DNA of 20,371 nucleotides from contig JAWCFL010000003.1 of NCBI GenBank assembly GCA_038858525.1, positions 8,364-28,734 on the forward strand, given 5' to 3'. Every line of letters begins with the position of its first letter. The stretch's first letter is position 1. Of the stretch, positions 2,548-18,936 are shown one piece after another. This stretch comes from Candidatus Jordarchaeales archaeon (GTDB lineage Archaea > Asgardarchaeota > Jordiarchaeia > Jordiarchaeales > Freyrarchaeaceae). The notes beneath the pieces were generated by a model. It searched no databases, was not told the origin of the DNA, and was given only the letters and a program-made list of their open reading frames with translations. A program made the translations under genes and the position numbers.

Positions 2548-2640
2548 AGGCTGGCGGTGGCTTTTTTCTGCTTAAAATTTATTTAGTAGTTTGTTTAAGG
2601 ATCATTTTGGATTGATGGATTAAATTGTGAAAGGGTGAAT

Positions 2641-3447
2641 ATGATGCTAGTAGCTGAGGGTGTATCCAAGATAGTCGGGATGCTTAGGGATGAGTTGAGG
2701 GTACTTGGCGCCATAACGGCGAGGGGGATAGCGCTCTACACGGTTGGGGGGAAGCAGATTTACTCGGACCTGGACGCCTCGGTCGAGGAGAGGCTCAGAG
2801 TGTTCATTCCGAGCTTTCCGGGGCTCAGCGTCGGGTCTCACATAACGCTTAACATAGGTGAGAGGACTCTTATAGTGATGAGGCTCTCGGAGAGAGCTGT
2901 CCTGGCGGTCTTCACCCACCAGAGGGTGGGGATAGTCCTCGTCAAGATGAACGCGCTAATAAAGGCGTATGGCTCAACACTCGACAAGGTGCTGGAGGGC
3001 GTCGTGGAGGAGGAGGTCCCATCGGTACAGCTGCCCGCGGTGGAGGAGAAGGTTGAGAAGGAGGTTGAAGAGGTTCAGGCGGAGGGCGTGGTGGAGGAAG
3101 CTAAAGTAGAGGAAGCCGTGGAGGCGCAACCCTCTGAGGGGGCAACTGCCGAGGCAGCTCCCGCCGCTGAGGCTGCCGCCGAGGCGGCTAAACCCACTGA
3201 AGCCATTACGGCGGGGAGAGTTAAGATAGTTACTGTTCAGGTTCCAGTGATACTCGACGAGAGCATAGTGAAGAAGAGTAGTGGGAGGGAGAGGAAGGTT
3301 CTCGAGCTGTGCGACGGGGAGCGCTCCGTTGACGATATAGCGAAGGCGGCCGGCGTCCCGTTCTTCGAAGCCCTACAGATCTGCACTAAGTATAGTGTCA
3401 AAAAGAAGATCCGCCTAATAGACAGGCCGAGAGTGGTACAGGAGTAA
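2641..3447 (+). CDS. Longin/roadblock/profilin-like N-terminal domain, acidic linker, C-terminal winged helix resembling that of NPRL2
   Basis: GGGTGA RBS at 2633-2638 before ATG 2641/2644. N-terminal ~120 aa alpha-beta-alpha pattern; Glu/Ala-rich linker; C-terminus VQVPV...KVLELCDGERSVDDIAKAAGVP...KIRL. Confidence 0.6.
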   Translation: MMLVAEGVSKIVGMLRDELRVLGAITARGIALYTVGGKQIYSDLDASVEERLRVFIPSFPGLSVGSHITLNIGERTLIVMRLSERAVLAVFTHQRVGIVLVKMNALIKAYGSTLDKVLEGVVEEEVPSVQLPAVEEKVEKEVEEVQAEGVVEEAKVEEAVEAQPSEGATAEAAPAAEAAAEAAKPTEAITAGRVKIVTVQVPVILDESIVKKSSGRERKVLELCDGERSVDDIAKAAGVPFFEALQICTKYSVKKKIRLIDRPRVVQE

Positions 3448-3493: not shown

Positions 3494-6400
3494 TCACCTT
3501 TTCTTTTTCATGCGCCGGACAGCTATTGCCGTGGCTCCAGCGGCGGACACTGCTACAAGCGCCACTACGACTGAGCCTCCCCGGCTTGACGACGCTGTTA
3601 CTAGTAGGAGTAGGAGGAGTAGGAGGTTGGCTTGGGTTTCATAGATGCTCGTTGACACGTATGAAATGTATGATGGGTCGTTCTGGACGTCTTGTCCGTC
3701 CCATTCGGGGAAGCACGTCGCCATGAAGTATGTTTCTCCCGTTATTGTTATGTTGGCTACGCTGTCCCCTGCTTCTCCAATGTACATTCCCCTGAACGCT
3801 GAGAGCGGTGTTGTTGAGGAGAGAGCTGTGAAGGTTCCGCTTCCGTTGAGCGTGTAATTTGAGCCACCCATGTGGAAGTCGGCTATGGGGGAGGAGCCAA
3901 CCTTGAAGCTGAAGCGGTTAGACATCGTGGAGTTGCTGTCAGGGTCCAATGCGGCTCCGCTTTCACTAGTGAAGACCGCCGTGTAGTTCCCTTGGATGAA
4001 CTTGCCGTAGTACGCCATGGCCAAGCTTCTACCCGTGAGGTCGACCGGGCTGCCTTCACCTGTCGCCGCGCTCCAGTCTCCCACTTCCTGGTCTACTTTA
4101 AGGATGCCACTGTAGTTGTCCTCCCCTGCTTCCAAGTGGAAGTGAGCCACCAGCGAGAGGGAGGTTACGTTGGCCGGCGAGGGGGACTTTTCGAAGTCGT
4201 CTGGGTCAACGTAAAGGGGAACATCCCTTATGAATGACCAGACGCTGTGCACTCTGTCGTCGTCCCCCACCTTGAGGGGGAACAGTGTTCCGTTGAGACC
4301 GCTGAGCGAGACGCCGAAGTCCACCGTGGTTCCGCCGGGAACCTTGACGCTGCCGTTAGCCCCGTGCTCACCGTTAAACGGAAGCCTCAGCTCAACGTCT
4401 TCCGCCGAGTTTATGATGAAGACGTGGGTTGCCTCCTCAGGGTCAGCGGCTCCCAGAAGAGGGCTGACGCCCATGTCTAGGACGCCGTCCCCATCCTGGT
4501 CAGTGTAGAGCAGCATGCCTGCGAAGGACGCCTCAATAGTGCTCCAGGAGAGGCCACGGTCAGGCAGGGAGGTGACGTAAACCTCTTGGACGTTGAATAC
4601 CAGCCAGGTCCACTCGTAAGTGTTAGTGGTGATCCACCAGTAGTCGGGGTTGTTTATCAGGTCGTCTATTGATGCATTGATGGTCATAGGGCCAAGGCCA
4701 GCGTAGCCCGGATTCTCCATGCCATTACTCCAAATAGTGCCGTTTATCATTTGCATATCGTTGCTACTGATGGGGGAGCCGTTAACGTAGGTCCAAGTGT
4801 AAGTCCTGTTCCACAGCATGGTTTGCTCGAAGTGCACGTATCCAACATGGGAAATGAGGAGCAAGCCTGGAGGAGACCCTATAGCTGTCACCAGCAACTC
4901 GTAGGAGACATTGGTGGTAATAGTCGCGTTAGCCCGCATCCGGACATAGTAGTTATCTGTGCCGGGGTTATTGTCCAGGTCCAGTGACCCGTCCTCGCCC
5001 ACGGAGTAGTCGAGCCAGCTGAAGGCGGAGTTAAAAGCGATGAGGCTTGAAAGCTCAAAGTGCTTCGATAAGTCAACGCCCCACACCGGGCTTCCATTCG
5101 AGCTGTTGAGGTATATGGGGAGGACGGCGTAGGAGCCGAAGAATGTCGAGTTTGTCGTGTTAAACTTCAGCGAGAATTTTAAGTGTAGAGCCTCGTCAAG
5201 CGTTCTGTTCGCCTCTAAGAGCTCAACGGGTAACTCAGACAGAGGGATAAGAAGGGGTAGTTTTACGGCTATGGCGGCTGAGATGTTTAGGGGGATGTTG
5301 TACATTAGTAGGATTGCGTATTCGGGGAGTTGTCCTCTTAGTAGTTTTAGGGAGAAGGGTAGGAGTGCTATGCAGACATTGTCTACTTGGTTTACGTTTT
5401 GGCCGTGGATGTCTACTAGGATGTTGAAGGGCTCGTTTGTTCTAACCGGGACTTCGATGAGCTGTTTCCCCGCCGTCTGCTGGCTTGTCACGTTTATGTA
5501 AATGTAGGGGTCGTCAACTATTATTTTTGGGTCCAGTGGCTTGTTTATCCATCCGAGCACGTTGCTGTAGTTGTCTAGGACGTTGATCACAGTGTACTTG
5601 TGCTCCCCGTCTGATATGCTGAGGGAGCCGACGAACGTCACGTTGTCGTTTGACGAGTAGCACTCATTAATGTTCAGGGTGAAGTTGGGCGAGCCAGTGC
5701 GCGTAATAACGTACTCGTACTCCGAGACCCTGTAGCCTTCCCCGACGGTGAATGCTCCCTGGTTGAATTTGAGCACTATCCACGTCTTGTCGCCCTTGTC
5801 TATGGCGAATATGGCGTAGTTTATGGGTGAAGAGGCATTTATGGTTATCTTGAACTTCTGCCCGTTCTTGACGTACTTTATAGGTTGCCCGTTTTCGTCT
5901 AGGAAGTGCACTGTGAAGCCGCTTGCCTTCTCGAGGGTTATCAGCCTGAAGGACTTGAACATGCTCTGTGGAAGCCAGTTGAGGGAGCCGGGCTTAACCT
6001 CGTTGCCCTTACTGTCGAGCGTCTTGACTGCGCAGTAGTAGTATCCTTGGAGGGCGGCGTCGGTGAAATAGCCTGTTACGTTAACCACGTATTCATTATC
6101 GCTGTCACTTCTACTGGTGCCGGTGAACGAGAAGGGGTCGGCAACCGTGGTGCCGTCGAACTTAACCATTATGGACTCCTTCTCCCACCTGCTTGAATTG
6201 TAGTTGTATCCTGCCTGGACGTAAACCTTGGCGCCCCCGATGCTGCCGAAGATCTCCACTCCGATATAACCTGCGGCCAGACCTAAGCCCTCAAAGAACT
6301 GCTTCGGCACCCTGACCGAGAAAGTGTAGTTGGCGTTCCTGCTGAGCGTCGACTCGAATCCAAGCGGCCCTGTCTCCACTTCTCCCCCGGAGGAATTGTA

Positions 6401-6631
6401 AATTATGAGCGTCGGCGTTGGGCCAAACTCCCAAGCGTTCACCTCCCAGCTGGCATTGATTGTTGTAGTTCCATTCAGCGTTGACCATGTAACGTTCATT
6501 TCAGGCAGGCTCTGGGCAGCGTATACTGGAGCTTGAATATGCTGGCTGGCCGCCGCAACGCCGACTCCAGTTAGGCCAGCGCCAATCAGGAGCACGGCTA
6601 GAAGCGCCGCCAGCATCACCCTTCCACTCAA
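3494..6631 (-). CDS. Large secreted, C-terminally membrane-anchored glycoprotein (S-layer/surface protein-like), function unknown
   Basis: Likely start TTG 6631, 7 nt after GGAGG (track start 6661). Signal peptide RVMLAALLAVLLIGAGLTGVGVAAA; about 30 N-x-S/T sequons; DQDGDGVLD Ca-binding-type motif at 4475-4501; C-terminal hydrophobic helix then RRMKKKR. Confidence 0.8.
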   Translation of the reverse strand: MSGRVMLAALLAVLLIGAGLTGVGVAAASQHIQAPVYAAQSLPEMNVTWSTLNGTTTINASWEVNAWEFGPTPTLIIYNSSGGEVETGPLGFESTLSRNANYTFSVRVPKQFFEGLGLAAGYIGVEIFGSIGGAKVYVQAGYNYNSSRWEKESIMVKFDGTTVADPFSFTGTSRSDSDNEYVVNVTGYFTDAALQGYYYCAVKTLDSKGNEVKPGSLNWLPQSMFKSFRLITLEKASGFTVHFLDENGQPIKYVKNGQKFKITINASSPINYAIFAIDKGDKTWIVLKFNQGAFTVGEGYRVSEYEYVITRTGSPNFTLNINECYSSNDNVTFVGSLSISDGEHKYTVINVLDNYSNVLGWINKPLDPKIIVDDPYIYINVTSQQTAGKQLIEVPVRTNEPFNILVDIHGQNVNQVDNVCIALLPFSLKLLRGQLPEYAILLMYNIPLNISAAIAVKLPLLIPLSELPVELLEANRTLDEALHLKFSLKFNTTNSTFFGSYAVLPIYLNSSNGSPVWGVDLSKHFELSSLIAFNSAFSWLDYSVGEDGSLDLDNNPGTDNYYVRMRANATITTNVSYELLVTAIGSPPGLLLISHVGYVHFEQTMLWNRTYTWTYVNGSPISSNDMQMINGTIWSNGMENPGYAGLGPMTINASIDDLINNPDYWWITTNTYEWTWLVFNVQEVYVTSLPDRGLSWSTIEASFAGMLLYTDQDGDGVLDMGVSPLLGAADPEEATHVFIINSAEDVELRLPFNGEHGANGSVKVPGGTTVDFGVSLSGLNGTLFPLKVGDDDRVHSVWSFIRDVPLYVDPDDFEKSPSPANVTSLSLVAHFHLEAGEDNYSGILKVDQEVGDWSAATGEGSPVDLTGRSLAMAYYGKFIQGNYTAVFTSESGAALDPDSNSTMSNRFSFKVGSSPIADFHMGGSNYTLNGSGTFTALSSTTPLSAFRGMYIGEAGDSVANITITGETYFMATCFPEWDGQDVQNDPSYISYVSTSIYETQANLLLLLLLLVTASSSRGGSVVVALVAVSAAGATAIAVRRMKKKR

Positions 6632-6811
6632 AGGAAATCCTCCACTGCATAATTTAATCAAATTATAAATAAAGAGGGAATGAAGATTAAATAATATTCT
6701 AAAGAGGCAATTCAGCTTCGGGGTTTGTTCGATCTTGGCGGTGTTGGGGGGAGGAAAAGTTTTAGTTTGTCTTTCGACTTTTTCTAGGTTGAGGGATGGT
6801 TTCTAGTAGCG

Positions 6812-13479: not shown

Positions 13480-14072
13480 CAAAAACCCTCCAACAAGCCA
13501 CAAGAAAAACACCAAAACAAAAAAACGTTTCGCCGCTCGAAAACCAAAAAGCACCAAGTGAAGAAACATTCGAGCTTAAAGTTTCTCCATCGATTTACAT
13601 GGATCAACTATTATAGATATGCTTGCTTAATTATTTCCATTAACCATTTAACTTTCACTTTCAGGTATTCTTCTATTCTATGTCCGCCCACCATCCTAAC
13701 GACTTGCATCTTCTCTTGTTGATCCTATTTTCCTTAGCATGTTTAGGTGACCTAACACTATAAGCATCATTAAACCTCAATGACTTTGACATTTTAGAAG
13801 CTGCTGATAGGACCCCACAGAAAGCAACTACTAAGCAATCAAAAACCACATAACATTAAGCACACGTGCTAGTCCTCCTCAACCAAAAGCGGTACCTCGC
13901 AACCAACATATAATGGAGAATTAGAAAGTTAAAATCCCTGAAGAAAGTAAAACTTTCTCAACTAAACAGAAAAACGGAAAAAGAAGAGTAACACACAAGA
14001 CCATCAAAAAATTCGACCACAAACGGAAAACAGATACATAATACTAAAAACAAGCACAAAACACCAAGGAAC

Positions 14073-14088
14073 TGGTAAGATTTTTAAA
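14073..14088 (+). promoter_or_regulatory. BRE/TATA promoter of the tRNA gene
   Basis: TTTTTAAA at 14081-14088 preceded by purine-rich GGTAAGA, ending 25 nt before tRNA position 1. Confidence 0.7.
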
Positions 14089-14113
14089 CCCACGATTCGT
14101 AAAAACGACATGA

Positions 14114-14216
14114 AGCGGGGTGGGGTAGTCAGGAGATCCCGCGGGGCTCATAACCCCGAGATCGGTGGTTCAAGGCCGCCCCGCTCTCAAGCGGCGAACA
14201 CATCCACCCCCCGCTA
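14114..14216 (+). tRNA. Initiator tRNA-Met (CAT) with a 28-nt intron at position 58/59 (14174-14201); CCA not encoded
   Basis: Acceptor stem AGCGGGG/CCCCGCT with A1-U72 and discriminator A; anticodon arm CGGGG-CTCATAA-CCCCG with the three G-C pairs of initiators; T stem GGTGG/CCACC. Removing 14174-14201 restores the T loop TTCAAAT. Confidence 0.93.
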
Positions 14217-14289
14217 TACCTTATTAACTTTAAATCCTCTTTAATTTCGTGTTTTTGTGAGCGGTTTCTTGTTCTTGTCCAAAGCTGTG

Positions 14290-14680
14290 CCTGTTTTCTG
14301 CTAGTTCAAGAACAGTTTCAGAACAACATGTTTTTGGTTTGTAGAAGCTTGTTCTTGAGATACGCGATTCTTGGCTTTAAATGGAGACTGTTGGAGCGAA
14401 GAACACCTCCGAAGTGACCGATATGCGACGAAACAATTAAGCCGAGTGAGGCGTCTTCAAGTTTGAGTGGGGCTTCTGAGGATTTTGAAGAAGTCTCTGA
14501 TGCTGTATGCGTGACGTTTCTCCGGTTAGTTATGGCATTATGGATTTTTAGGTGTAATTGAAGGGCTTGTTCAGCCATAAATGCTGCGATGCCGTAGTCT
14601 CCCTTCGGACAGGCTTCTTTTGGCTGTGTCGAGCATTCTTAGTGCTCTATGACCTTACCAAGTTCCTCGCGGCGGCTCAC
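14290..14680 (-). pseudogene. Degenerate HEPN-domain gene
   Basis: Joining frames from GTG 14680 gives SRREELGKV/RALRMLDTAKRSLSEG/DYGIAAFMAEQALQLHLK, then fragments LTGE and LEDA. This fits the archaeal HEPN pattern (A..L..G.Y..A.F.AEQA.QL.LK) with frameshifts near 14649 and 14602 and more damage downstream; 3' end approximate. Confidence 0.7.
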
Positions 14681-14830
14681 CGATTACACCACTAAACCAA
14701 TTTCTTGAGCTCCTTAAGATTCTTTTGAGAAGAGCGCTGAGTGGCATGAATGTCTTACTTTTCGGAGAAATCAGATTTTTCAGTAAAATTTAAATTTCCT
14801 GAGAGGTTACATCATCGTGGTGGTCTCGTA

Positions 14831-15094
14831 ATGTGCTGTGATGATTTATCCTGCTACGGTCAGCCTGGTGTTTTTAGGGTTGAGGCTGTTGTAAGTGTTG
14901 ATGCTAGAGGACAGATTGTGCTTCCTAAGGATGTGAGGGAGAAGGCAGGAATACATTCAGGGGATAAGCTGGCTGTTGTAAGCTGGGAGCGTGATGGAAA
15001 AATTTGCTGTATTTCTTTGATTAGGGCTAGCGACATCGTTGAGATGGTGAAGAAGATGCTTGGGCCCATGGTGAGGGAGCTTGTTATGGGGTGA
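14831..15094 (+). CDS. AbrB/MazE/SpoVT-fold protein with Cys pairs, resembling the 'HgcAB-associated protein' (HgcC) family
   Basis: Likely start ATG 14831 after GGTGG (track start 14750). [48 protein letters not shown]; the AbrB fold is clear, the HgcC family link is from recall. Confidence 0.8.
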
Positions 15095-15885
15095 CCTGCT
15101 TGGTGGGTAAAGACGTGAAGAAGCTGATTAAGGAGAAGTATGGTAGGATTGCTGAGACTGGTGGGTCGTGTTGCAATGGTTTTCAACCATGTTGTGGCGG
15201 TGAAGTGTGGGAGCTCATGAAGAAGATAGGATACGACGAGAAGGATCTCGAAGAGGTTCCTGTGGACGCGGTTCTCGGGCTTGGCTGCGGTAACCCCGTT
15301 ATCTTTGCTCTCTTGAGAAAGGGGGAGACTGTTCTTGACCTTGGCTGCGGCGCGGGGATCGACTGTTTCGTTGCCGCTAAGAAAGTCGGAGCGGGCGGAC
15401 GCGTTATAGGTGTGGATATGACGCCTGAAATGATTGAGAGGGCAAGGGAGAACGCTAGAAAGGGCGGCTTCAGTAACGTGGAGTTTAGGCTTGGCGAAAT
15501 AGAGAATCTACCTGTCGATGACTGCTACGTTGATGTGATCATTTCGAACTGCGTGATCAACCTTTCGCCCGATAAGGATAGGGTTTTTAGGGAGGCTTTC
15601 AGAGTTCTGAAGCCGGGTGGGCGACTGGTCATTTCGGACACCGTCCTGTTAAGGGAGCTTCCGGAGAACGTGAAACGCTCAGTTGACGCGTACGTTGGGT
15701 GCGTCGCTGGCGCGCTGAAAAAACAGGAGTACTTGGAAGCCATAAGGAAAGCCGGTTTTCAAGATGTTAGAGTGATCATGGAAGCCTTGTTCCCGGTTGA
15801 AAAAGTGATCAGAGATCCCGATTTGGTAAGAAAAGCAGAGGGAACAGTTGCCAGCATAACGGTGTGGGCAGTAAAACCGCATTAA
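15091..15885 (+). CDS. arsM: Arsenite S-adenosylmethionine methyltransferase
   Basis: N-terminal CC pairs, [45 protein letters not shown]; GTGA overlap with the upstream stop. Confidence 0.93.
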
Positions 15886-15945: not shown

Positions 15946-16872
15946 TTATTGTTGTGTTAGTTGTTCTAGTTTTTGTATTTCTTGCCATTTTTTGTCGACG
16001 TATGCTTGTATAGCGTTGATTATGTCGTGCCTAGTTTTTGGTGTGAATAGGTGTCTGAAACGTCCTTGTGGTCGAAGGTAGTATTCTACTGGGAGTTTTC
16101 TTTTAGGCTTCATGGTGATCTTGTATTGTCCATTTTCTACCTCGTAGAGAGGGAACATGCAGGTTTGGACTGCCAGCCGTCCTAGTTCTATTGTTAGGTA
16201 TGGGGGAGTTCTCCATCCTCTAGGGCATGGTGTTAAGGCTAGGATGAAAGATGGGCCGTCTGCCTGTATGGCTTTCTTCATTTTTCTTTGGAGATCCATG
16301 GGGTAAGAGGGGCTTACTGTTGCGGCGTAAGGTATGTCGTGAGCCACTACGATCTTCATGAGGTCTTTTTGCCACTCTGTTTTTCCAGGAATTACTTTCC
16401 CTGCTGGGCTAGTGGTGGTCCACGCGGCTCTTGGCGTTGCGCCCGAACGCTGTATTCCAGTGTTCATGTAAGCGTCATTAGTGTAGCAGACATAGACGAA
16501 CTTGTGGCCCCTTTCTAAGGCCCCAGAGAGTGATTGAAGCCCTATGTCGTATGTTCCTCCATCACCCGCTAAGGCTAACACAACGTCCCATTTCTTTTTC
16601 CTGCCTTTTCGTATCAGAGCCTTTTGGGCTGCCTCTACTCCCGCCGCCACGGCACCCGTGCACTCGAATGCCGGGTGGATCCATGGTGTTCTCCAAGAAG
16701 TGTAGGGGAAGGGTGTTGTTGACACTTCGAGGCAGGATGTGGCGTTGCAAATTATTGGTGGCTCATCGAAGGATTTCAGTATTTGCCTTATCGTTACTCC
16801 CTCGCCGCACCCCGCACAGAGCCTGTGTCCAGATGAGAGGTACTCGTGTAGAGGTAGCGATTTTAGAGCCAT
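15946..16872 (-). CDS. porB: Pyruvate/2-ketoisovalerate:ferredoxin oxidoreductase beta subunit
   Basis: GHRLCAGCG, CNATSCLEV, TPP motif GDGGTYDIG...AYMNTGIQRS, PCPRGW. Substrate not resolvable by eye. Confidence 0.93.
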   Translation of the reverse strand: MALKSLPLHEYLSSGHRLCAGCGEGVTIRQILKSFDEPPIICNATSCLEVSTTPFPYTSWRTPWIHPAFECTGAVAAGVEAAQKALIRKGRKKKWDVVLALAGDGGTYDIGLQSLSGALERGHKFVYVCYTNDAYMNTGIQRSGATPRAAWTTTSPAGKVIPGKTEWQKDLMKIVVAHDIPYAATVSPSYPMDLQRKMKKAIQADGPSFILALTPCPRGWRTPPYLTIELGRLAVQTCMFPLYEVENGQYKITMKPKRKLPVEYYLRPQGRFRHLFTPKTRHDIINAIQAYVDKKWQEIQKLEQLTQQ

Positions 16873-16881
16873 AATATCACC

Positions 16882-18084
16882 TCACGGTCCTATACATCCT
16901 GGCCCCCGACAGCCGACCACCCTGTAGTCTTCCTCGAGCACGTCTCGCTCAGCTATCCTTAGGAGCTCCTCTGTGATTTTGATAAAGTGCTCTACTCGTA
17001 TGTCTCGTCCGCCGAGCCCCGCGGGGAACCCCATGACGTGCGGTCTCTCTCTCATCTCGTAAAGGGCAGCTCTGACCTCCATGTTCAGCGCGCCTCCCAT
17101 GGATCCGAAGCTTATATGCCGATCGATCACTCCCACCGCCTTCAGGCCACTTAGGGCTTTTCTGAGGTCTTCGACTGGGAGGGGGCGGAAGAGCCTCAGC
17201 TTCAGTAATCCCACCGGCTTGCCCTCAGCCCTCATCTCGTCAACAGCATCCTTAGCTGTACCGCTAGCGCTCCCTATAGTCAGAAGGGCAACCTCAGCTC
17301 CATCCATCTGGTACTTTTCAATTATATCGTAGTTTCTCCCAAAGGACTCGTTAAATTCGTTGATTATCTCTTTTATTGTTTGAATGGATTTCTTGGTGGC
17401 GACTTCCTGCTGGTACTTTATTTCCGGGTAGTACTCTGGGACGCCGACGCAGCCTATAGTCACAGGATTCTCGACGTCCAGCGGGTAAACGGGGGTTCTC
17501 GGTGGCAGAAATGAGTCCACCTCACTGTCGCTCAGAGTCTCGACGCCCTCAGTGGAGTGGCTCACAACGAAACCGTCATGACAAACCATGACTGGAAGGA
17601 GAACCCTGTGATCCTCCGCTATCCTGAAGGATTGAATAGTGAAGTCATAAACTTCCTGAGCGTTCTCGTTGTATATCTGGATCCAGCCGCAGTCCCTCGC
17701 CCCCATAGTGTCGCTCATATCGTTCCAGATGTTTAGGGGAGAGTTCAGAGCTCTGTTAGCGACGCTCATCACTATTGGTAACCTGAAAGATGACGCTACA
17801 AACAGCATCTCGTACATTAAAGCCAAACCTTGGGAGGCTGTTGCAGTGTAGGTTCTAGCACCCATCGCTGAGGCGCCTATACAGGCGCTCAACGCCGAGT
17901 GCTCGGACTCGGCTGAAATGAACTCAGCGTCCAGTTCGCCGTCCGCGACGAAGTCGCTCAGCCTCTCAACAATTATGGTTTGGGGAGTTATAGGGTAAGC
18001 AGCTATGACGTCCGGTTTACATTGCTTAACAGCATAGGCCGCGGCTTCGTCGCCATTGAGGGCTAAAACCTTTCTCGCCATCAC
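16882..18084 (-). CDS. porA: Pyruvate/2-ketoisovalerate:ferredoxin oxidoreductase alpha subunit
   Basis: AAYPITPQT, ESEHSALSAC, TATASQGL, ANRAL, GLGGRDI. Confidence 0.93.
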   Translation of the reverse strand: MMARKVLALNGDEAAAYAVKQCKPDVIAAYPITPQTIIVERLSDFVADGELDAEFISAESEHSALSACIGASAMGARTYTATASQGLALMYEMLFVASSFRLPIVMSVANRALNSPLNIWNDMSDTMGARDCGWIQIYNENAQEVYDFTIQSFRIAEDHRVLLPVMVCHDGFVVSHSTEGVETLSDSEVDSFLPPRTPVYPLDVENPVTIGCVGVPEYYPEIKYQQEVATKKSIQTIKEIINEFNESFGRNYDIIEKYQMDGAEVALLTIGSASGTAKDAVDEMRAEGKPVGLLKLRLFRPLPVEDLRKALSGLKAVGVIDRHISFGSMGGALNMEVRAALYEMRERPHVMGFPAGLGGRDIRVEHFIKITEELLRIAERDVLEEDYRVVGCRGPGCIGP

Positions 18085-18085
18085 C

Positions 18086-18370
18086 TTACGCTTCCTCCGC
18101 CTCGCTCTTCATCCTTATGGCTCCTGAGGGGCACTCGTAGGCGCATATCCCACAACCCTTACAGTGGTAGTAATCGATTTCTACCTTACTTTCTCTCCGG
18201 GTTATGGCGCCATCTGGACAGTAGATCCAGCATAGGAGACAGAATGTGCACTTCTCCTGATTGATGACAGGTTTCTGCCTAGACCTCCAATCGCCTGTCC
18301 TGTAGCTTTCAGCGTTGCCTGGCTCTAATATGTATCCAGCGAACGGTACCTCCTCCCATGTTTTCAACAT
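18086..18370 (-). CDS. porD: Oxidoreductase delta (ferredoxin-like) subunit
   Basis: TGDWR...KPVINQEKCTFCLLCWIYCPD...DYYHCKGCGICAYECP. Confidence 0.93.
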   Translation of the reverse strand: MLKTWEEVPFAGYILEPGNAESYRTGDWRSRQKPVINQEKCTFCLLCWIYCPDGAITRRESKVEIDYYHCKGCGICAYECPSGAIRMKSEAEEA

Positions 18371-18936
18371 TACACCTCCTCGATTTTTGCTTCCCGGTAG
18401 GCCCGCTCAACAGCCTTAACGTTCGCCTCAGCCACTTTACCCTTAAAGGTGGAATTTACAACGCTAATAACCGAGTCAAGCGTGACTAGTTGAGTGGATT
18501 TCACTAAGGTGCCGAGTATCGGCGTGTTAACTCTTGGGGCCCCTAGAAGCTCCAACGCTATACTCGTCGCGTTCACAGTCGCAACCTTTGCTTTGGTTCC
18601 CAGTTCCTTCTTAAGCTCCCCCGGCTCCCTCGCCGTATTAACTATGAGCCAACCGTTATCCTTCAGTCCTTCCGTCACATTTTCAGCCCTAATAACTGTC
18701 GGATCCAGCACGACAACGACGTCTGGAGTGTATATCTGCGACCTTACACGGATTAGGGTGTCGCTTAATCTAGTGAAGGCCCTTATCGGCGCACCTTCCC
18801 TCTCAGCGCCAAAAGCAGGGAAACTCTGCACTTTTTTACCTTCAAGAAGAGCAGCCTCCGCAAGCAGGCGACTGGCTGTGACCACACCTTGTCCGCCTCT
18901 ACCGTGAAACCTGACTTCCACCATTCCGCGCAACAT
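18370..18936 (-). CDS. porC: Oxidoreductase gamma subunit
   Basis: EVRFHGRGGQGVVTAS, FPAFGAEREGAPI, PDVVVVLD, NTPILG; stop overlaps the delta start (TAATG). Confidence 0.93.
   Translation of the reverse strand: MLRGMVEVRFHGRGGQGVVTASRLLAEAALLEGKKVQSFPAFGAEREGAPIRAFTRLSDTLIRVRSQIYTPDVVVVLDPTVIRAENVTEGLKDNGWLIVNTAREPGELKKELGTKAKVATVNATSIALELLGAPRVNTPILGTLVKSTQLVTLDSVISVVNSTFKGKVAEANVKAVERAYREAKIEEV

Follow-up and report, generated by a model that had tools for sequence, protein, structure and literature searches.

We found that the gene at positions 2641-3447 on the + strand of the window (the whole stretch of 20,371 nucleotides analysed, from a Candidatus Jordarchaeales archaeon) encodes a roadblock domain joined by an acidic linker to a winged helix of the NPRL2/NPRL3 subclass, and that the usual neighbour of this winged-helix family in Asgard archaea is a gene for a Bet3/TRAPPC3-like protein, of the type of the crystallised Thor-TRAPPC3 (7yh2/7yh3; PMC10933270). 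We propose that the protein may be an adaptor, whose winged helix would dock on a Bet3-like dimer and whose roadblock would offer a platform for small GTPases, a reading to which we assign a probability of roughly 0.5.

A two-domain gene in Jordarchaeales

The reading frame is open on the + strand from 2635 to 3447 and yields 268 amino acids from the ATG at 2641, with the ATG at 2644 being an equally or more likely start. The latter is favoured because a GGGTGA stretch, a putative Shine-Dalgarno-like site by its sequence, lies at 2633-2638 (+), 5 nt before it; the second Met is also the start in most close homologues. The gene is real and belongs to Jordarchaeales. Seven close homologues (69-94% identity), one of which is labelled Candidatus Jordarchaeales, conserve both domains, residues 2-124 and 192-268, with the variation confined to the acidic Glu/Ala/Val low-complexity linker of about 70 residues between them (3013-3213, +), whose length varies among the homologues. 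An identical protein sequence is present in the ESM Atlas. Single-sequence searches of Pfam and the PDB with the protein returned only weak HTH_47 matches or noise.

The C-terminal domain is an NPRL2/NPRL3-type winged helix

The C-terminal domain (residues 192-268; 3214-3444, +) was modelled by AlphaFold (AF2) as a winged helix with a leading strand, four helices and a closing strand (pLDDT 90), and it belongs to the NPRL2/NPRL3 subclass of winged helices. The top Foldseek matches were SEA/GATOR1 chains (E 0.03-0.08, TM about 0.7). Upon structural alignment with VIA-align, residues 258-333 of GATOR1 chain C, which we take as NPRL3 from the chain length and the residue range, ranked first (Z 8.7-9.3), yeast Npr2 reached Z 8.2, and the GATOR1/SEA matches covered 69-70 residues. 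Additionally, a profile of 67 family domains retrieved human NPRL2 first among natural proteins (whole-sequence E 3e-6, single-domain E 0.007) and aligned to its residues 171-237 (PDB 6ces_N), including the leading Val-Pro strand. The likeness to NPRL2 that a preliminary description had noticed by eye is thus borne out, as is the NPRL2 stretch that it gave. In the motif it cited, VQVPV is present from position 3235 on, with 15 residues rather than 13 between it and KVLELCDG; the Pro-to-DG spacing is 26 in NPRL2 and 23 in the Jordarchaeales protein.

The same description had named transcription factors and PqqD as possible better matches for this domain. Among solved structures this does not hold, with classical transcription factors at Z 5-6 over about 50-60 residues and PqqD at Z 5.4 over 49 residues, as against 8.2-9.3 for GATOR1; the bacterial winged helix Rv2067c reached Z 7.7-7.9 and an HTH_47 peptidase Z 7.0. 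By sequence and among predicted models it holds in part. Per single stretch, an Lrp/AsnC regulator (E 7e-5) beats NPRL2 (E 0.007) in the family profile search, and PqqD, matched in one short stretch, obtained E 2e-5 overall; a separate sequence match to PqqD covered only about 29 residues (E 0.003). The predicted models of bacterial PatA_N-linked and PqqD-family domains gave TM 0.73 against 0.70 for NPR2. Since some bacterial winged helices tie with GATOR1, the likeness to NPRL2/3 may mark an old subclass rather than special descent, one that extends beyond eukaryotes and Asgard archaea. Pfam HTH_NPRL3 matched 9 of the 67 family winged helices (best E 1e-6), one family protein passing the curated cut-off, and gave no match on this gene.

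These sequence matches bear on a different reading, in which the winged helix would bind DNA, a Bet3/V4R-fold protein would sense a small ligand and the roadblock would only dimerise. Such a split one-component regulator has a precedent in the HTH-V4R regulators, to which MsvR of methanogens belongs. The single-stretch Lrp/AsnC score speaks for it, as do the TrmB and MarR Pfam matches that are common among the family winged helices, the net basic charge of the domain (16 K/R against 11 D/E), the ligand-type cavities of Thor-TRAPPC3 (PMC10933270) and the suggestion that NPRL2 winged helices might bind DNA (Levine et al. 2013; PMC3747258). However, GATOR1 is structurally closer than classical transcription factors, at Z 8-9 over 70 residues, the putative recognition helix (FFEALQIC) is mostly hydrophobic and without conserved basic residues, and the C-terminal domains of NPRL2/3 form a protein contact surface (PMC8534245). 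We therefore regard a split regulator as credible but unlikely.

The N-terminal domain is a roadblock

The N-terminal domain (residues 2-124; 2644-3012, +) was modelled with AlphaFold (AF2) from an alignment of 31 sequences from Asgard genomes, resulting in a helix, two strands, a helix, three strands and a helix (pLDDT 89). The roadblock is a circular permutation of the longin, and under the fold-order definitions of Levine et al. 2013 (PMC3747258) the order α-ββ-α-βββ-α makes the domain a roadblock of the MglB/LAMTOR type, not a longin. The earlier assignment to a longin-like fold is correct insofar as the domain lies inside the longin/roadblock/profilin superfold, but "longin" in the strict sense is wrong. 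The best structural match was a Lokiarchaeota roadblock, PDB 8yqk (VIA; Z 14.4, rmsd 2.3, 107 residues aligned), for which we found no publication, followed by the inner domains of Mon1/Fuzzy, MglB, Rag C-domains and LAMTOR subunits (Z 9-11.6). Foldseek likewise returned roadblocks, MglB and the Rag C-domain, and the N-domain family profile matched two solved Asgard roadblocks at E 0.001-0.009 (8yqk at E 0.0013). The domain thus shares its fold and topology with Loki 8yqk/8yql (Z 14.4) and with MglB, LAMTOR/Ragulator and the Rag C-terminal domains (Z about 10), from which it differs in its fused winged helix and in being too divergent for Pfam Robl_LC7 (PF03259), which left the protein unmatched, the locus not being among the 20 matches in the genome. 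Matches to Pfam CdhC and bPH_5 on this domain were below the cut-off and conflict with the model, and were rejected.

Profilins, which the preliminary description offered as an alternative for this domain, share the superfold, at Z 7.8-8.6 with LokiProfilin at 8.6, but they are a much poorer match than roadblocks at 14.4. This comparison weighs on the reading that the protein is an actin regulator, its N-domain acting as a profilin and paired with the upstream neighbour (1678-2547, +), a 1DGelX-like protein made up of one gelsolin domain, a linker and a second domain (matches to Asgard gelsolins in the PDB at E 5e-10). In all 4 genomes of the window's own family the gelsolin gene does lie directly upstream. 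The two genes are separated, however, by an AT-rich gap of 93 nt with a T-run, and in other families none of 27 gelsolin-orthologue loci has a member of the winged-helix family within 1.5 kb. The gelsolin gene, matched in 54 of the 61 Asgard genomes searched, is probably not part of this system, and an actin regulator appears very improbable.

Comparison with NPRL2

We next consider whether the protein could be a true minimal NPRL2, that is, an arginine-finger GAP for a Rag-like GTPase. It resembles NPRL2 and NPRL3 of GATOR1/SEACIT (Npr2/Npr3) in having the same winged-helix subclass after a longin-superfamily domain, and the alignment to NPRL2 171-237 and the relation of roadblock to longin by circular permutation (PMC3747258) are in its favour. 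NPRL2, in contrast, has an N-terminal longin of order ββ-α-βββ-αα and two or more tandem winged helices (PMC3747258), against a single one here, and a long acidic linker takes the place of TINI. In GAP longins the β1-β2 loop bears a GP motif, and these domains also possess an arginine finger (PMC12290439), which is Arg78 in NPRL2 (PMC8534245). In that region none of the 31 N-domain homologues has a GP motif, and no Arg column is invariant among them (R81 in 21, R85 in 11 and R95 in 17 of the 31); from these columns no Arg78 equivalent was recognised. The structural comparison returned no alignment to the NPRL2 longin, which did not figure among the 50 best matches to the N-domain, an absence that does not exclude a match. 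Pfam NPR2 (PF06218) left the genome (92.7% complete) unmatched, even with hits accepted to E 1, and did not match the protein either.

Because three defining features that were tested are lacking, the protein falls outside the NPRL2 family; it is neither an NPRL2 orthologue nor a demonstrated GAP, and a true NPRL2 function is highly improbable. The preliminary idea of a minimal NPRL2 GAP thus fails on the catalytic domain. What is supported for the N-domain is that its fold is one used as a small-GTPase platform.

The family across Asgard archaea

Upon searching Asgard genomes, the family alignment matched 122 of 301, and the profile finds the family in 69 of the 76 genomes of a Thorarchaeota-like family. 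Of the 88 representatives that the N-domain profile retrieved, 47 also possess the winged helix, with copy numbers from one to three; the protein studied has a single copy, against two or three in paralogues and in relatives from Thorarchaeota. The same winged helix also follows true longins, including in a paralogue of this genome (G000:C1:9635-10258), whose architecture is closer to NPRL2 than that of the studied gene; an ORF that looks like a profilin by eye lies 2 kb upstream of it (C1:7123-7539). A further paralogue (G000:C4:15199-16071) combines a divergent roadblock with two winged helices in tandem. The nearest roadblock relative in the sister family (about 50-53% identical) stands alone, as a protein of about 126 aa that lacks the winged helix. 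The gene for this stand-alone roadblock is usually beside a TFB gene, and the studied gene is also near TFB. The roadblock of the studied family also occurs fused, via a proline-rich linker, to a domain that by eye looks like a nucleotidyltransferase type (L050:2173-3543, -).

The architecture class is known already. Liu et al. (bioRxiv 10.1101/2020.10.19.343400) report NPRL2-like proteins in Asgard archaea, which occur in most Thorarchaeota and combine a longin with a small C-domain of NPRL2 type, in agreement with what the preliminary description stated. Distribution and architecture agree, and their family is probably the one found here. The two are alike in a domain of the longin/roadblock superfamily followed by a small NPRL2-type C-terminal domain; the Jordarchaeales member differs in its N-domain, a roadblock instead of a longin, and in its single winged helix. 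Neither a Bet3-like neighbour nor Jordarchaeales is mentioned in the passages of the preprint that we found.

The winged helix is the constant part of a pair with a Bet3-like gene

In several families, homologues of the studied gene have a Bet3-like gene immediately after them. We then searched separately for the Bet3-like gene and read its neighbours, counting a gene of the winged-helix family as linked when it lay no more than 500 nt away and shared the strand. The Bet3-like gene adjoins such a gene in 50 of 61 genomes and in 9 of 13 families, counts that include kin genomes and are thus not independent; four of the linked families (24 of 24 genomes) were absent from the profile seed. With a profile of the Bet3-like clade, Thor-TRAPPC3 (7yh3) scored E 2e-25, and eukaryotic TRAPPC3 proteins scored between 1e-16 and 1e-8. 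Close relatives of the crystallised Thor-TRAPPC3 lie directly downstream of the roadblock-winged-helix gene, and in Thorarchaeota they are the second Bet3-like gene. Thorarchaeota also present two cassettes of roadblock-winged-helix and Bet3-like genes, separated by 3 kb and accompanied by membrane proteins and a third gene of the V4R fold.

The N-domain of the Bet3-adjacent gene is, depending on the family, a roadblock, a longin or a small CxxC module, the longin and the Cys module being read from sequence. Because the N-domain swaps between families, the winged helix is the constant part of the Bet3 neighbour. The module, of the form CxxC...HGxPxH, replaces the roadblock before the winged helix in one family, where it is beside the Bet3-like gene in 17 of 17 genomes. 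A comparable joining of longin-superfamily dimers to Bet3-type subunits is found in the eukaryotic TRAPP core. The longin subunits of TRAPP, however, have no winged helix, whereas in the Asgard pair, a complex that we infer from genes, the winged helix and not the roadblock is constant. No fusion of the winged helix to a Bet3-like domain was found among 96 proteins scanned, and Pfam labels likewise showed none. We also found no description of the winged-helix/Bet3 pairing in the literature on Asgard NPRL2/NPRL3, GATOR1, TRAPPC3 and the winged helix, a search that covered subscription papers only to a small extent.

In the window's own family the pair is unlinked (0 of 5 genomes), and the Bet3 link for this protein therefore rests on orthology. 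The Bet3-like gene of this genome (G000:C4:100093-100599) is on a different contig from the studied gene. Its surroundings (G000:C4:93000-107000) include KaiC-like ATPases and a second gene with a gelsolin domain, together with a GTPase fusion, two Rab-like GTPases and a roadblock. The Bet3-like protein of this genome is most identical to those of Atabeyarchaeia (42-43%), and the winged helix of the studied protein is placed, with weak support (85/76), as sister to Bet3-adjacent Atabeyarchaeia genes, in a tree of 74 columns whose key node is below the star threshold. The winged-helix and Bet3-like trees partly mirror each other, a sister family of the same order grouping with two distant families in both (95/98 and 98/94). 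This grouping runs against taxonomy, the sister family not falling with the Jordarchaeales lineage in either tree.

Furthermore, we co-folded the protein with the Bet3-like dimer of its genome, obtaining a score of 0.39 against 0.01 for the best of 3 controls, which is weak support and defines no interface; the runs agree in at least 38% of contacts, with partner pLDDT of at least 65. Of 80 solved complexes, 58 reached the mark used, as did 2 of 110 mismatches; those that did so with a score of 0.60 or under, however, were only 7 of the 80 together with both mismatches. A weak pass of this kind is more often wrong than right unless the pair was likely beforehand.

A possible adaptor between Bet3-like proteins and small GTPases

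Under the adaptor reading, the protein would be cytoplasmic and two-headed, with the variable acidic linker between the heads. The winged helix would be a protein-binding module docking on the Bet3-like dimer, here the product of G000:C4:100093-100599, and the roadblock might dimerise through its sheet edge and serve as the platform for a small GTPase or for another roadblock/longin protein. Such a simple TRAPP/GATOR-like scaffold could pass a signal from the Bet3-like protein, with its ligand cavity, to a G-protein switch, acting as a platform or allosteric regulator, like MglB and Ragulator, and not via the arginine finger of NPRL2. Against this reading stand the absence of a small-GTPase gene next to the studied gene and the lack of the winged helix in the closest roadblocks of the sister family.

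The roadblock and winged helix could instead act directly on a small GTPase of the genome, with no need for the Bet3-like protein, as a fused version of the actinobacterial conservon. There, a roadblock (MfpD) and a DUF742 protein (MfpC) are likewise arranged around a small GTPase (MfpB), and the two domains here would correspond to an MfpD/CvnB-like GAP and an MfpC/DUF742-like exchange factor. MfpC is reported as a GEF, encoded in an operon with the roadblock and the GTPase (PMC11343762), and the genome studied has several MglA-like and Rab-like GTPases. DUF742 matches 19 of 35 family winged helices (best E 5e-4), but these matches are weak, and at E 0.01 they shrink to 3 of 67 once the wider family is considered. 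The conservon differs in its separate genes, in a GTPase operon that includes a sensor kinase and in having no Bet3-like partner. Moreover, no small-GTPase gene is adjacent to the studied gene or to those roadblock-type homologues whose neighbourhoods were read, and the Bet3 link would be left unexplained. A fused conservon is in our estimation decidedly unlikely.

Returning to the adaptor, a broader and more tentative claim, which we hold to be possible though doubtful, is that docking on Bet3/TRAPPC3 is an ancient role of the NPRL2/3-type winged helix, through which Asgard archaea would fit exchangeable roadblock, longin or zinc-module heads to a Bet3-like dimer. The result would be a prokaryotic complex of GATOR1 and TRAPP building blocks regulating small GTPases, and in this lineage the pair would still bind though the genes have separated.

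Asgard genomes contain dozens of roadblock, longin, TRAPPC3-like and small-GTPase genes that rarely share operons (PMC10933270), and partners are therefore hard to assign. The winged-helix family points to one such pair of partners, whose Bet3-like side already has a crystallised close relative. If the pair binds, it would show how parts of TRAPP and GATOR1 were combined before eukaryotes and would indicate an ancestral role for the NPRL2/3 winged helix. For this gene taken alone the case is weaker, its lineage having lost the operon link. To the published class the locus adds an unlinked case, an exchange of N-domains against which the winged helix stands out, and the weak co-fold.

Other genes in the window

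Downstream, on the - strand, 3494-6661 encodes a protein of 1055 aa with an N-terminal signal-like stretch, a C-terminal membrane anchor and no Pfam match, possibly a surface protein. At 14750-15885 (+), preceded by an AT-rich gap (about 13600-14700), an AbrB-like gene overlaps a SAM methyltransferase gene that by eye looks like an arsenite methyltransferase. Finally, 15946-18936 (-) appears by eye to be a four-gene 2-oxoacid:ferredoxin oxidoreductase operon of an ordinary kind.
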